Shown piece by piece: positions 131 to 8,095 of a stretch of DNA of 10,811 nucleotides. A program made the translations under genes and the position numbers. The notes below the pieces were generated by a model that worked only from the letters and a program-made list of their open reading frames with translations, was not told where the DNA came from and did not search any database. Numbering within the stretch: the first letter of the stretch is position 1; each line of letters starts with the position of its first letter. This DNA is from Abditibacteriaceae bacterium. GTDB lineage: Bacteria; Armatimonadota; Abditibacteriia; Abditibacteriales; Abditibacteriaceae. The stretch spans positions 1 through 10,811 of the forward strand of contig JANPJS010000118.1 in NCBI GenBank assembly GCA_031425655.1, in the 5' to 3' direction.

Positions 131-179
131 AAAAAGCAAAACCCGCAAACGAATCGGATTCGTTTGCGGGTTTTGCTTT
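131..179 (-). terminator. Intrinsic (probably bidirectional) terminator downstream of the Tim44-domain gene
   Basis: Perfect 23-bp inverted repeat aaagcaaaacccgcaaacgaatc (133-155) / gattcgtttgcgggttttgcttt (157-179) with A/T-tracts on both sides, 9 bp past the stop codon at 189. Confidence 0.85.
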
Positions 180-188
180 GTGCGGCGT

Positions 189-1226
189 TTAGCCTTCCTG
201 GTTGATGGCCGAGAGTTTCCACTCGCCGCGTCCGCGTTGGCGCGTGAAAGTCCAGTATTCGCTGAACTGAACCGGCGTCGAGGCATCGCCTTCGATGACC
301 TGACCGTTGCGTTCGGTGTAATCAATCAAGCGAGCATTGATGGACGCCGTGGCATATTCCACTTCGCCTTCCTGCCACGCCTCGGTGATGTCGAAGGAGC
401 GCATCACGATGTTCTTGATGATATTGCGCTCGCCGCGCTGCTCCATCGCTTGCAAATCGCCAATCAATTCAGCCTGCATTTCCGGCGTTGCCGACGAGTT
501 CAGCGTGGCGCGATCTCCGGCTGACCACGCTTCCTGAATCTGGAAAAAGTGATTCGTCAGCGTGTCCTGAAGCTTCAGGTTGGTCATGGACGAGTCTTCA
601 AGAGCAATCGCCGCCAAGCCCTGATCGCGCGATTGATTATTCATCTGGTTGTTCATCGCCGGGCCTTCGGTGTCGCGGAAATCGGAATACGGCGAATTGG
701 CGTTACCAAAGCCGCCCTGATTGCCGCCGAAACCGGGATTCCTGAAGTTATCGGTTTTCACGTTGCCGACCATGTTTGGCTGCTGTTTTGACTTCATCAT
801 GCGGAACAAGGCAAAAAGCGCCAATCCGCCGAGAAGAAGCATCAAAATGCCGCCCATGCCGCCGCCGCCCATGCCGCCGAACGCGTTCATCAGCATGGAG
901 CCGATGACGGTTCCGGCGACGGCGCCCATGAGGCCGCCGAGCAGAGGATTGCGCTGAAGCCACGAGCCGCGATTGTTTTGTCCGTTGACGCCGCTGGCCG
1001 CGCCTCCCGGCTGACGAGCGCCGTTGATGGGCGCCATCTGGTTGCCCGGCCCGCCGCTGTCCTGCGTGCGCGAGCCGCGATTGCCGAACGAGCGATACGA
1101 TCCGCCGCGCGAGCGTCCCACGCGCGCTTCTGCCGTTTCGATGAGCACGCCGCCGGTGAACACGCCGATGGCGGTCAGTGCGACGAGGCGCGCAGTGCCC
1201 ATTCTCTTGATCCAATTACTTAACAT
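189..1226 (-). CDS. Tim44 domain-containing membrane protein (signal peptide, Gly-rich region, TM hairpin, C-terminal Tim44-like domain), 345 aa
   Basis: Start moved from 1286 (ORF track) to ATG at 1226, which follows a strong SD (ggaggaaaaATG). The N-terminus has a signal-peptide-like segment ending AEA, then RVGRSRGGSYRSFGNRGSRT. Hydrophobic Gly-rich helices follow. The C-terminus has Tim44-like motifs FFQIQEAWSAGD...ATPEM and IEGDASTPVQFSEYWTFTR...WKLSAINQ. Confidence 0.88.
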   Translation of the reverse strand: MLSNWIKRMGTARLVALTAIGVFTGGVLIETAEARVGRSRGGSYRSFGNRGSRTQDSGGPGNQMAPINGARQPGGAASGVNGQNNRGSWLQRNPLLGGLMGAVAGTVIGSMLMNAFGGMGGGGMGGILMLLLGGLALFALFRMMKSKQQPNMVGNVKTDNFRNPGFGGNQGGFGNANSPYSDFRDTEGPAMNNQMNNQSRDQGLAAIALEDSSMTNLKLQDTLTNHFFQIQEAWSAGDRATLNSSATPEMQAELIGDLQAMEQRGERNIIKNIVMRSFDITEAWQEGEVEYATASINARLIDYTERNGQVIEGDASTPVQFSEYWTFTRQRGRGEWKLSAINQEG

Positions 1227-1325
1227 TTTTCCTCCGTTGTCTGCCGATTCGGACTGAGCGAATTCATCGCTGTGTCGAACGGTCAATCATTGCTGCTTCG
1301 ATGCCGAAATCGGCGTCTTAGAAAC

Positions 1326-1387
1326 AAAAAAGGCGCAAGACCTCACAGGCTGAGCAAAAACTCATTCCTGTGAAGGTCTTGCGCCTT
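1326..1387 (-). terminator. Intrinsic terminator forming the riboswitch expression platform
   Basis: Minus-strand RNA: AAGGCGCAAGACCUUCACAGG (1387-1367) pairs with CCUGUGAGGUCUUGCGCCUU (1349-1330) with one bulge, followed by UUUUGUUU. The 5' arm overlaps the 3' strand of the aptamer. Confidence 0.88.
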
Positions 1388-1473
1388 AGATCGCTCTAAG
1401 AGAACAGGACGAGCGAAAATTCGCTGTATTGACGACCCTGTTCACCAATTCAATTGGCCGCTACTCCCCTTCA
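1371..1473 (-). promoter_or_regulatory. yybP-ykoY (manganese-sensing) riboswitch aptamer
   Basis: Minus-strand RNA folds as a four-way junction. P1: UGAAGG/CCUUCA, with L1 GGAGUA/AAGA and GCG/CGC. P2: GCCAAU-UGA-AUUGGU. P3: GAACAGG/CCUGUUC, with the L3 region GUCGUCAAUAC and distal hairpin AGCGA-AUUU-UCGCU. P4: CUUAGA-GCGA-UCUAAG. The hallmark motifs AAGGGGAGUAGC, CGUCAAUAC and GCAAGACCUU are all present in the correct order. Confidence 0.93.
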
Positions 1474-1487
1474 GAAGCAACGATTTA

Positions 1488-1493
1488 ATTCTA
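1488..1493 (-). promoter_or_regulatory. Candidate sigma70 -10 box (TAGAAT) for the riboswitch/Tim44 transcript
   Basis: TAGAAT on the minus strand lies 14 nt upstream of the first aptamer base. No convincing -35 box was found. Confidence 0.45.
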
Positions 1494-1577
1494 CTCGATT
1501 TGCCTGCCGAACGCTATGCGATTTTGAAAATAAATCCCGCGCTGATAAAAACGCTTCGCGCTGTAAACTGCACGCTG

Positions 1578-1919
1578 ATGGACGAACCAAAACCGCTTCG
1601 CATTCAATGCCGGCGCGTCAAAGGCTTCAATCTTCAGGCCATGAGTCAAGCGCGCAATGGCTTGCCGTGCGTTTATGTGGGGCGGCCTTCGCGCTGGGGC
1701 AACCCGCACGAGCCGTCGCCGACCGAACGCTTCGATGCTTATAACCGCTTCGTGGCGGTCGAAGATTACAAAGAGCATCTCGAAGAGCATCCCGAATTGG
1801 TCGTGCTGGCCAAACAAGAACTGCGCGGCAAAAATCTGGCGTGCTATTGTAAGGAAGGCGAGGCCTGCCACGCCGATATTCTGCTGCAAATCGCCAACGA
1901 AGACCCAATTGAACCATGA
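1578..1919 (+). CDS. DUF4326 domain-containing protein, 113 aa
   Basis: Motifs VYVGRPSRWGNP and ELRGKNLACYCK-x4-CHADILL are typical of DUF4326. ATG 1578 is preferred over the TTG at 1500 because the family N-terminal pattern (PLRIQCRRVKGF) starts just after it and the upstream part overlaps the divergent promoter region. The stop overlaps the next start (ATGA). Confidence 0.82.
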   Translation: MDEPKPLRIQCRRVKGFNLQAMSQARNGLPCVYVGRPSRWGNPHEPSPTERFDAYNRFVAVEDYKEHLEEHPELVVLAKQELRGKNLACYCKEGEACHADILLQIANEDPIEP

Positions 1920-7045: not shown

Positions 7046-8095
7046 ATGCTGACCGCCCATCTTTATAATACGCAATCGCAGAAGCTGCGCATTCTGAGCC
7101 GCGACGAATTGCTGGCTGAAGCGCCCTCGCCCGAAGAGCGCACGCAAAAGCAAAACGCGCCCGGCAAAAGCGTGGGTCTGCTGACGCGCGGCGTGGCGTA
7201 TTGTCATGCCGACGAGTTCGTGTGGGTAGACATCACCGCGCCCGACGAGGCCGATTTTACTTTGCTCACCGAGCGTTTCAACGTGCATGAAATGGTTCTC
7301 GAAGACGTGCACGGGCAGGAAGGACGGCCCAAGCTGCACGAATACGACGACCAGCTTTATCTGGTCTTTCACGCGCTGTTAAAGCAAGAGAAAACCGAGC
7401 ATTTCAGCGTGCATTTGCAGGAAATAGACTGCCTCGTCGGCCCCGATTACGTCGTGACGCTGCATACCGAAGAAATTTCGCCCTTCGAGGATTTACGCAA
7501 GCGCTGGGAACGTCATCCGACGCTGATGCAGCCCGGCCCGGCGTATTTGCTTTACGAATTGATGGACGAAGTATTGGACGATTATTTTCCGCTTTTAGAC
7601 GTGATGGACGACCATATTGACGACATGGAAAATCGGATGCTGGAAGGCGACGGACAAAATTTGTCGGGCGAGATTTTCGGCTTGAAGCGCAGTCTTTTGC
7701 AAGTGCGTCACATTGCCGGGCCAACGCGCGACGTGGTCAACACGCTGCTGCGCCGCGATGCCGAAACCGGCGGCAAGCACTTCGCGTATTTTCAAGACCT
7801 CTACGATCATGCAGTGCGCATCGTGGACATGATTGACACCTTTCGAGAAATCCTTTCGGGCGCGCTGGACGTTTATTTAGCCACGCAAAGCAATCGCCTC
7901 AACGAAGTGATGAAAACCATGACCGCAATGAGCATCATTTTGCTGGCGCCCAACCTCATCGCGGCGGTTTACGGCATGAACTTCGAGAATATGCCCGAAT
8001 TGCACACCCGCTTCGGCTACTTCGGCGCATTGGGCGCGATGGCATTCGTCGCTGTCGGTCTCGTTGTTTACTTCAAGCGCATCCGCTGGTTGTAG
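7046..8095 (+). CDS. corA: Magnesium/cobalt transporter CorA
   Basis: WVDI, ED...RPKL, LLYELMDEVLDDYFP, YFQDLYDH, SNRLNEVMKTMT, the signature YGMNF-x2-MPEL, two C-terminal TM helices and FKRIRWL. Confidence 0.95.
   Translation: MLTAHLYNTQSQKLRILSRDELLAEAPSPEERTQKQNAPGKSVGLLTRGVAYCHADEFVWVDITAPDEADFTLLTERFNVHEMVLEDVHGQEGRPKLHEYDDQLYLVFHALLKQEKTEHFSVHLQEIDCLVGPDYVVTLHTEEISPFEDLRKRWERHPTLMQPGPAYLLYELMDEVLDDYFPLLDVMDDHIDDMENRMLEGDGQNLSGEIFGLKRSLLQVRHIAGPTRDVVNTLLRRDAETGGKHFAYFQDLYDHAVRIVDMIDTFREILSGALDVYLATQSNRLNEVMKTMTAMSIILLAPNLIAAVYGMNFENMPELHTRFGYFGALGAMAFVAVGLVVYFKRIRWL

Follow-up and report, generated by a model that had tools for sequence, protein, structure and literature searches.

A yybP-ykoY-class riboswitch leader conserved upstream of a Tim44-family membrane protein gene in Abditibacteriaceae

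The 10,811-nucleotide (nt) stretch analysed here (the window) is the start of a contig (C118; GenBank JANPJS010000118.1) within the 5.98-Mb genome of an Abditibacteriaceae bacterium. On its minus strand, a leader of the manganese-responsive yybP-ykoY class precedes a gene for a Tim44-family membrane protein. Judged from its conserved loops and helices, this leader is very probably a real riboswitch of that class. Its pairing with Tim44 is conserved, as each of the 16 loci of a single Tim44 clade whose sequence reaches the leader region has it. The riboswitch class is known, but a conserved Tim44 target was not found described; our literature search returned no account of a yybP-ykoY or manganese riboswitch paired with Tim44, although the gene tables of key catalogues could still list the pairing. 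Proteins of the Tim44 family occur widely in bacteria and, to our knowledge, none of them has been assigned a function. With a conserved manganese riboswitch, one clade now has a defined inducing signal through which function can be tested directly. The surprise is limited, because the riboswitch class is well known and htpX, another gene found behind this leader in the family, is already a catalogued target.

A one-gene unit behind the leader

The first-pass annotation of this stretch, made from the sequence alone, had proposed a monocistronic unit consisting of a full aptamer, a Tim44 gene with a Shine-Dalgarno-led start, and a downstream terminator. This organization was upheld. The open reading frame (ORF) runs from 1226 to 189 and encodes 345 amino acids (aa); its ATG at 1226 follows a GGAGG at 1235-1231 and lies 145 nt from the aptamer end, and the predicted terminator proved to be a long perfect hairpin (179-131). 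Strong hairpins also stand 3' of most of the Tim44 orthologues that were folded. The elements of the unit, all on the minus strand, are as follows.

1488-1493, minus strand: -10 box TAGAAT, probable leader promoter, identified by eye
1474-1481, minus strand: 5' arm of a competitor helix termed P0, GUUGCUUC, predicted by folding to pair with the L1 5' strand; probable first transcript bases
1371-1473, minus strand: yybP-ykoY (Mn2+) aptamer, four-way junction with P1.1 (1472-1468/1376-1372), P1.2, P2, P3.1/P3.2 and P4; supported by a sub-cut-off RF00080 match, covariation and a custom model
1462-1467, minus strand: 5' strand of the L1 loop, GGAGUA (3' strand AAGA at 1380-1377); its G-G-A-x-U-A-G columns are invariant in 18 aligned leaders
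1426-1432, minus strand: L3 loop UCAAUAC, with A1430 as counterpart of the Mn-binding A41/A48
1322-1387, minus strand: intrinsic terminator of the expression platform, whose 5' arm consists of the 3' strands of P4, P1.2, L1 and P1.1; from folding
1231-1235, minus strand: Shine-Dalgarno sequence GGAGG, outside the terminator; GGAGG also precedes the ATG in four other loci (L009-L012)
189-1226, minus strand: gene for the 345-aa Tim44-family protein, supported by Pfam PF04280 (E 2.7e-31), AlphaFold, Foldseek, and hydropathy and charge
131-179, minus strand: downstream terminator hairpin closing the one-gene unit, read from the sequence and by folding

The promoter is the least distinct of these elements. 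The TAnAAT pattern is kept at the -10 site in all five aligned leaders, and the orthologues have better -10/-35 pairs than the window, where the -35 position (1516-1511) is a poor match; a promoter scan of positions 1-2400 called no sigma-70-like promoter anywhere, including the TAGAAT site. A separate promoter between the leader terminator and the ATG was considered and rejected: the same scan called none there, including the interval 1325-1227 that the first-pass annotation had singled out as a place for one, and the spacer is not conserved. RNA contigs from three runs of one study of a near strain cover parts of 355-939 only, not the leader, and may derive from DNA.

Anatomy of the aptamer

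The aptamer extends from 1472 to 1372, or from 1473 to 1371, as first annotated, once the closing U-A pair is counted. Read from 1472, it consists of P1.1 (GAAGG), L1 (GGAGUA), P1.2, P2, P3.1, L3 (UCAAUAC), P3.2 and P4, followed by the 3' end CGC AAGA CCUUC, which closes at 1372. It forms a four-way junction on two stacked legs, with an L1 internal loop that carries the extruded A, a G-C receptor pair above L3, and an L3 loop with the invariant Mn-binding adenosine. In L. lactis, L3 reads UCA41AU43UC, the N7 of A41 is the Mn-specific contact, and P1.1 is the switch helix (PMC6754395, in part; articles marked in this way were available to us only in part). The counterpart of this adenosine in the window, A1430, is invariant in 18/18 aligned leaders, whereas L3 varies among Tim44 leaders downstream of it. 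Both strands of L1 (GGAGUA/AAGA), together with the C-G and G-C pairs adjoining L3 that form the receptor, are invariant in the eight orthologous Tim44 leaders compared in detail. The yybP-ykoY class has a four-way junction and its alx subtype a three-way junction (PMC12153347, in part). The window leader does not belong to the alx type, which lacks P2; here P2 is present, and three of its pairs are changed on both sides.

Conservation of the pairing argues for the fold as a whole. When the 32-pair structure was imposed on the eight orthologous leaders, 94.9% of cells were paired and 7 of the 32 pairs had changed on both sides; none of 500 shuffles scored as high, and slid controls gave 26-44% paired, with the qualification that the eight leaders are kin, not independent, and the structure was drawn on the window's own sequence. 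A scan for the core pattern returned 13 matches in 11 of the 27 family genomes and none in the reversed control.

The Rfam profile misses this lineage

The call of a full aptamer stood as far as the core features are concerned, all of which are present, and did not stand against Rfam: no RF00080 match was obtained in the window at the gathering score. The check that the first-pass annotation had proposed, the Rfam yybP-ykoY model on the leader, reached 15 of the required 45 bits (E 0.039); this relaxed-threshold match spans 1315-1475, and nothing else in the genome matches RF00080 at E<=1. With such a score, the call needed other proof. At the gathering cut-off, Rfam also found nothing in 20 related loci, and only one tRNA in 20 of 30 Pseudomonadota Tim44 loci. 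Matches to miRNA and plastid untranslated-region families at relaxed thresholds were rejected, as they correspond to the terminator hairpin.

The genome contains a second copy of the leader, found by a motif scan at C143:1643-1736, that Rfam misses even at E<=10. It heads an operon (C143:1643-4490) with genes for a zinc ribbon (PF13453), TerC/Alx, an Sbt_1 bicarbonate transporter and P-II, and the TerC protein belongs to the Alx family (TIGR03718, 435 bits against a cut-off of 246). The RF00080 cut-off thus has little power in this lineage: it misses this terC-linked sister copy, and of 14 control genomes only 2 contain a leader that passes it. It overlooks both copies of the class in this genome, and the absence of a significant Rfam hit, which the first-pass annotation had proposed to treat as decisive, would wrongly have dismissed the finding.

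A custom covariance model was built from the eight Tim44 leaders only. Among 121 genomes of the phylum, it gave 24 matches in 21 genomes: three Tim44 leaders, one htpX leader (L093) and 20 others. The latter precede genes for TerC (nine, in three cases after a zinc-ribbon gene), HtpX-type M48 proteases (six) and single cases of a zinc ribbon with a P-type ATPase, an Na/Ca exchanger, a carbonic anhydrase, an HPF-like protein and an SPFH pair. Since a model trained on Tim44 leaders also recovers leaders before TerC, P-type ATPase and Na/Ca exchanger genes, the Rfam miss lies in the Rfam model, not in the RNA.

The expression platform

The first-pass account lacked the leader terminator (1387-1322). 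Because its 5' arm is built from aptamer strands, it overlaps P1.1 and competes for the P1.1 3' strand, so that the aptamer and terminator folds are mutually exclusive. Folding energies of the full leader are -80.4 kcal/mol when the terminator forms and -52.4 kcal/mol when the aptamer is forced, both before tertiary and metal contacts. In the eight leaders, 96% of terminator cells are paired; covariation is weaker here, with two pairs changed on both sides and 49 of 500 shuffles as high. An equivalent hairpin followed by a U-run was present in all 11 other Tim44 leaders folded. The Shine-Dalgarno sequence lies about 90 nt beyond the terminator, well past it, so the platform is modelled as a transcriptional ON switch; control of this type has been described for L. 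lactis yoaB (PMC13598126, in part).

A second competitor precedes the aptamer. P0 pairs with the L1 5' strand, and its sequence variants preserve this pairing; its folding energy is -8.2 to -11.2 kcal/mol in 8/8 Tim44 leaders of the Abditibacteriaceae type and in one SPFH leader (L164). In the more distant Tim44 leaders L052, L056 and L059, as in those of terC, it is weak or missing. In the window, the P0 fold is about isoenergetic with the aptamer fold (-38.1 versus -37.1), and P0 may set the OFF default. A different arrangement was seen in eight htpX leaders (L090, L092, L101, L174, L175, L179, L180 and L181), in which a hairpin on P1.1 without a U-run is followed by a separate terminator, giving a two-step platform.

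Distribution of the leader-Tim44 pairing

Among the 27 genome loci, the leader is found in 4/4 full-length orthologues (57-63% identity), and also in G221. Fourteen of 43 metagenome loci (L046-L059) fall in the same clade and ten show the leader, which is cut at the contig end in L046, L049 and L054. Loci L047 and L048 extend only 70 and 141 nt upstream, L057 and L058 are without the gene start, and L052, L053 and L055 are near-copies. The most divergent leader, in L059 (37% identical), is weak by the custom model (18.7 bits, E 0.012) and clear by eye. In L048, the spacer before the Tim44 start (60-141) contains several tandem copies of a 16-nt unit, a feature that the closely related L047 and L049 did not show.

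A quick tree of 50 proteins placed the 16 rows with the leader and the two with short upstream sequence on one side of a branch with SH-aLRT support of 100, and 32 leaderless rows on the other; the root is by midpoint only, and L057 and L058 were not included. The custom model, run here on 100 sources with duplicates and part of the weak metagenome hits left out, detected no leader in the 30 Pseudomonadota Tim44 loci, in L103 and L060, or upstream of distant long Tim44 proteins, although a leader upstream of a whole operon could escape it. The clade is small, with seven clusters (50% identity) at 360 bits or more and the next one at 226 bits. The gene was found in 6 of the 27 family genomes and, at full length, in none of the others among the 301 phylum genomes searched. 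The family profile, run with strict E-values and without a positive control, matched none of 151 genomes from the phylum of G301 and 81 from that of G302. Clade members outside Abditibacteriaceae have a GC content of 63-69%, against 51-58%; one related protein bears the NCBI label 'Pantanalinema sp.'. Viral contigs gave two weak partial loci, and plasmids gave C-terminal matches only, below 40% identity and mostly from rhizobia.

Flanking genes differ from one Tim44 leader locus to the next, which suggests that the promoter moves together with the riboswitch, the gene and the terminator. As the first-pass annotation had supposed, TerC is encoded elsewhere: the genome has three TerC genes, one of them led by the second riboswitch copy. 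No terC lies beside the Tim44 gene in 12 loci whose ORFs were read by eye.

The Tim44-family protein

The protein begins with a signal-like helix (aa 1-34), followed by a Gly/Arg-rich linker, a Gly-rich helix (94-116), a transmembrane helix (125-143), a further linker and the Tim44 domain (202-343, window 623-198). The domain matches PF04280 at 109 bits against a cut-off of 29.6, in line with the first-pass assignment, and has the family fold. In the AlphaFold model, pLDDT is 90-98 over blocks of 201-345, and three N-terminal helices are joined by disordered linkers. The best Foldseek matches are the C-terminal domain of human Tim44 (E 9.6e-8, 17% identity) and mitoribosomal mL45; an ESM Atlas search returned Tim44 clusters only. 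The segment of aa 35-116 (window 1124-879), from a GSRGSR motif to the Gly-rich helix, matches weakly the N-terminus of human CHCHD2/CHCHD10 (E 7e-4) and Pfam DUF2076 (E 0.088), and both matches may reflect Gly-rich composition.

The helices in aa 94-143 are devoid of Asp, Glu, His and Cys; the protein as a whole contains a single His and lacks Cys. Helices without metal ligands argue against a transporter, and the protein does not belong to any Mn exporter family (MntP, TerC, UPF0016 or P-type ATPase), having no Pfam match to them and only two or three hydrophobic helices. Basic residues flank the helices. By the positive-inside rule, this places the Tim44 domain in the cytoplasm, and the protein is most likely anchored in the inner membrane with that orientation. 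Within the domain, the acidic residues D238, E249, E282, E286, D302 and E323 are conserved across the whole 54-row alignment, distant homologues included.

Other genes behind the same leader

In the 27 family genomes, which are kin, the custom model located 26 leaders in 19 genomes. Their downstream genes encode HtpX (13, one cut by a contig end), Tim44 (6), SPFH pairs (2), YidD (1) and TerC (4); thus, 22 of the 26 precede HtpX, Tim44, SPFH or YidD genes and four precede TerC. The tally suggests that what is regarded as a 'Mn exporter' riboswitch mostly controls membrane-protein quality-control genes in this lineage. Such a regulon fits the recent placing of TerC at the secretion machinery: in B. 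subtilis, TerC proteins co-purify with SecY, SecDF, FtsH, HtpX and flotillins (PMC10550928, in part).

Nearest to the Tim44 leaders are the SPFH leaders, which score 74 and 62 bits. They were found in L164 (1501-1700) and L183, from G002 and G001, where they head tandem SPFH/Band 7 genes. The same SPFH pair (C99:8483-6526, 74% identical) is present in the window's genome with no leader in the 800 nt read upstream, and the switch was therefore gained or lost within one genus. The YidD case is a single one, a weak leader match (25.9 bits) at L187:1119-1529 in G008, before a gene assigned to TIGR00278 (67 bits). A small zinc-ribbon protein (PF13453), Pro-rich in its middle part and ending in a D-rich, KKKRGGFL-like tail, recurs in most of the riboswitch operons listed (L089, L093, L100, L150-L152, L165, L166, L173 and L186), before terC or a P-type ATPase gene, or after htpX. 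Single-case targets in other families of the phylum are a carbonic anhydrase (L148), an HPF/S30AE protein (L161) and an Na/Ca exchanger (L163).

A manganese-induced quality-control factor and its alternatives

Mn2+ as the ligand and ON-type antitermination are established for this riboswitch class. On this basis, a sigma-70-type promoter would start the mRNA at about 1481. At low Mn2+, P0 would hold the L1 strand, the weak P1.1 would stay undocked, and the overlapping terminator would stop RNA polymerase near 1325. At high free cytosolic Mn2+, whether from Mn excess or from a rise in Mn on alkalinisation, binding at the L1-L3 interface through A1430 would lock P1.1, and transcription would run into the Tim44 gene. 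The product, a membrane-anchored Tim44-family protein, would assist the folding, insertion or clearance of membrane proteins alongside HtpX and would not transport Mn. We lean towards this reading, in which Mn excess, or alkaline stress acting through Mn, induces a membrane-protein quality-control factor, not a transporter; its quality-control role, taken separately, seems reasonably probable. Alkalinisation raises cytoplasmic Mn in E. coli (PMC12153347, in part), so a Mn switch could report alkaline stress besides metal excess.

Genetics in P. aeruginosa points in the same direction. The main effectors of the AmgRS envelope-stress response there are htpX, yccA and PA5528, and HtpX and PA5528 compensate for each other (PMC4335980, in part). 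The same triad, with PA14_72930 given as 'Tim44 family', has been tied to pH and osmotic stress, citing Hinz 2011 (bioRxiv 2024.03.26.586813, in part). The matching triad suggests that PA14_72930 is PA5528, and the PA5528 primers (PMC4335980, in part), read by hand, reveal an A-x-A-K-R junction near residue 25, like that in the window protein's family. Of the functions that the first-pass annotation had offered, membrane protection is thus the one favoured by the regulon context and the P. aeruginosa genetics. Direct Mn tolerance or metalation of exported proteins was given up as the lead, given hydrophobic helices free of Asp, Glu, His and Cys.

Several observations weigh against this interpretation. 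The leader's Rfam score is far under the cut-off, and the pair next to the L3 receptor (columns 61/94) is U-U in four of eight leaders, the window and three close relatives. The Tim44 gene occurs in only 6 of the 27 family genomes, and the regulon tally overstates independence, since these genomes are kin. The protein scores below the cut-offs of the TimA models NF033778 (33.5 against 200 bits) and NF033779 (52.8 against 80 bits) and is not a member of either. PA14_72930 is equated with PA5528 by way of the matching triad, and PA5528, called a protein of unknown function, was dispensable in the rescue of LspA depletion, for which HtpX and YccA were needed (PMC12906115, in part).

The same switch might instead serve manganese handling directly, with the protein acting as a Mn chaperone or TerC accessory subunit that loads Mn onto exported proteins. 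Characterised targets of the class are mostly Mn exporters or TerC, one of the three TerC genes in the genome is itself riboswitch-led, and the domain has its six conserved acidic residues. However, these residues are kept in distant homologues, and homologues outside the clade have no riboswitch; no terC stands beside the gene in the 12 loci, and the membrane helices carry no metal ligands, which makes the proposal rather unlikely. A structural argument leads elsewhere: mL45 chains predominate among the best Foldseek matches (E about 2e-7) and also turn up in the profile search, nine Lys/Arg lie within the 59 residues after the first helix, and a YidD gene stands behind the same riboswitch in one genome. 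The protein could then be an mL45-like ribosome-membrane tether, with its Gly/Arg-rich segment and Tim44 fold, that aids co-translational insertion when Mn disturbs translation. We regard this as improbable, as identity to mL45 is 11-15% and not above that to Tim44, no ribosomal or yidC genes were seen nearby among the ORFs read, and the basic segment would lie outside the cytoplasm if the first helix were a cleaved signal peptide.

The remaining alternatives concern the RNA. Its aptamer may have drifted to Ca2+, another divalent ion or pH, in which case the gene would respond to a general signal of envelope state or pH and not to Mn. A member of the class from S. pneumoniae is also Ca2+-responsive in vitro (PMC11672702, in part), alx responds to alkaline pH (PMC12153347, in part), L3 is variable after its conserved A, and a carbonic anhydrase, a bicarbonate transporter and an Na/Ca exchanger are found among the other targets. 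Nevertheless, the Mn-discriminating adenosine is invariant, the aptamer is of the four-way and not the three-way alx type, and even for alx alkaline pH works via raised Mn (PMC12153347, in part); a changed input is distinctly improbable. Nor does it seem at all probable that the leader is a relic, taken over from terC or htpX, that only lowers expression constitutively: the low Rfam score, the terminator fold that is 28 kcal/mol more stable at equilibrium, and the Tim44 homologues outside the clade that manage without a leader could be accommodated, but compensatory changes have preserved the loops and helices among leaders whose proteins are only 37-63% identical, while the flanking DNA diverges.

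The quality-control reading can be widened, tentatively and with more doubt than confidence. In Abditibacteriaceae and some other lineages, yybP-ykoY might be mainly an RNA regulator of envelope stress, with Mn2+ as a proxy for alkaline or membrane stress, switching on HtpX, Tim44, SPFH, YidD and TerC in a job like that of AmgRS in Pseudomonas. If this were true, bacterial Tim44 would be a translocon-associated rescue factor, likely the ancestral role of mitochondrial Tim44 and mL45.

Relation to known systems

The closest described riboswitches are the ON switches of L. lactis yoaB and X. oryzae (RF00080; PMC6754395, in part), which have in common with the window leader the four-way junction, L1/L3, the Mn-binding A, and a P1.1 shared with the terminator. 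The window leader differs in its Rfam score, in a 5' competitor helix conserved in its lineage, and in its target, a Tim44-family gene and not one for an ATPase, MntP, UPF0016 or TerC. Non-transporter targets are not new as such: the RegPrecise regulon (Sun et al. 2013, PMC3766115, supplement 5) lists several, including htpX, so the link to membrane proteolysis was already catalogued. None of its 18 target families is named Tim44, COG4395 or PF04280, although six are bare locus tags (PMC3766115).

On the protein side, P. aeruginosa PA5528 (probably PA14_72930) is likewise a membrane-associated Tim44-family protein, co-induced with htpX and overlapping with it in function under membrane stress (PMC4335980 and bioRxiv 2024.03.26.586813, both in part), but it is under the two-component system AmgRS, whereas the window gene is behind an RNA switch. 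Mitochondrial Tim44, mL45 and Caulobacter-type TimA have the C-terminal fold in common with the window protein, which differs from these in its extra signal-like helix, GSRGSR-type motif and Gly-rich helix.

Neighbouring genes

Two other genes of the window deserve mention. A CorA-type Mg2+ transporter gene (7046-8095, plus strand) lies 5.5 kb away and shows no sign of a link to the Tim44 unit. A DUF4326 ORF, which is not a neighbour of the Tim44 gene in the orthologous loci read, is divergent here (1500-1919, plus strand; E 9e-18) and starts just past the leader promoter.

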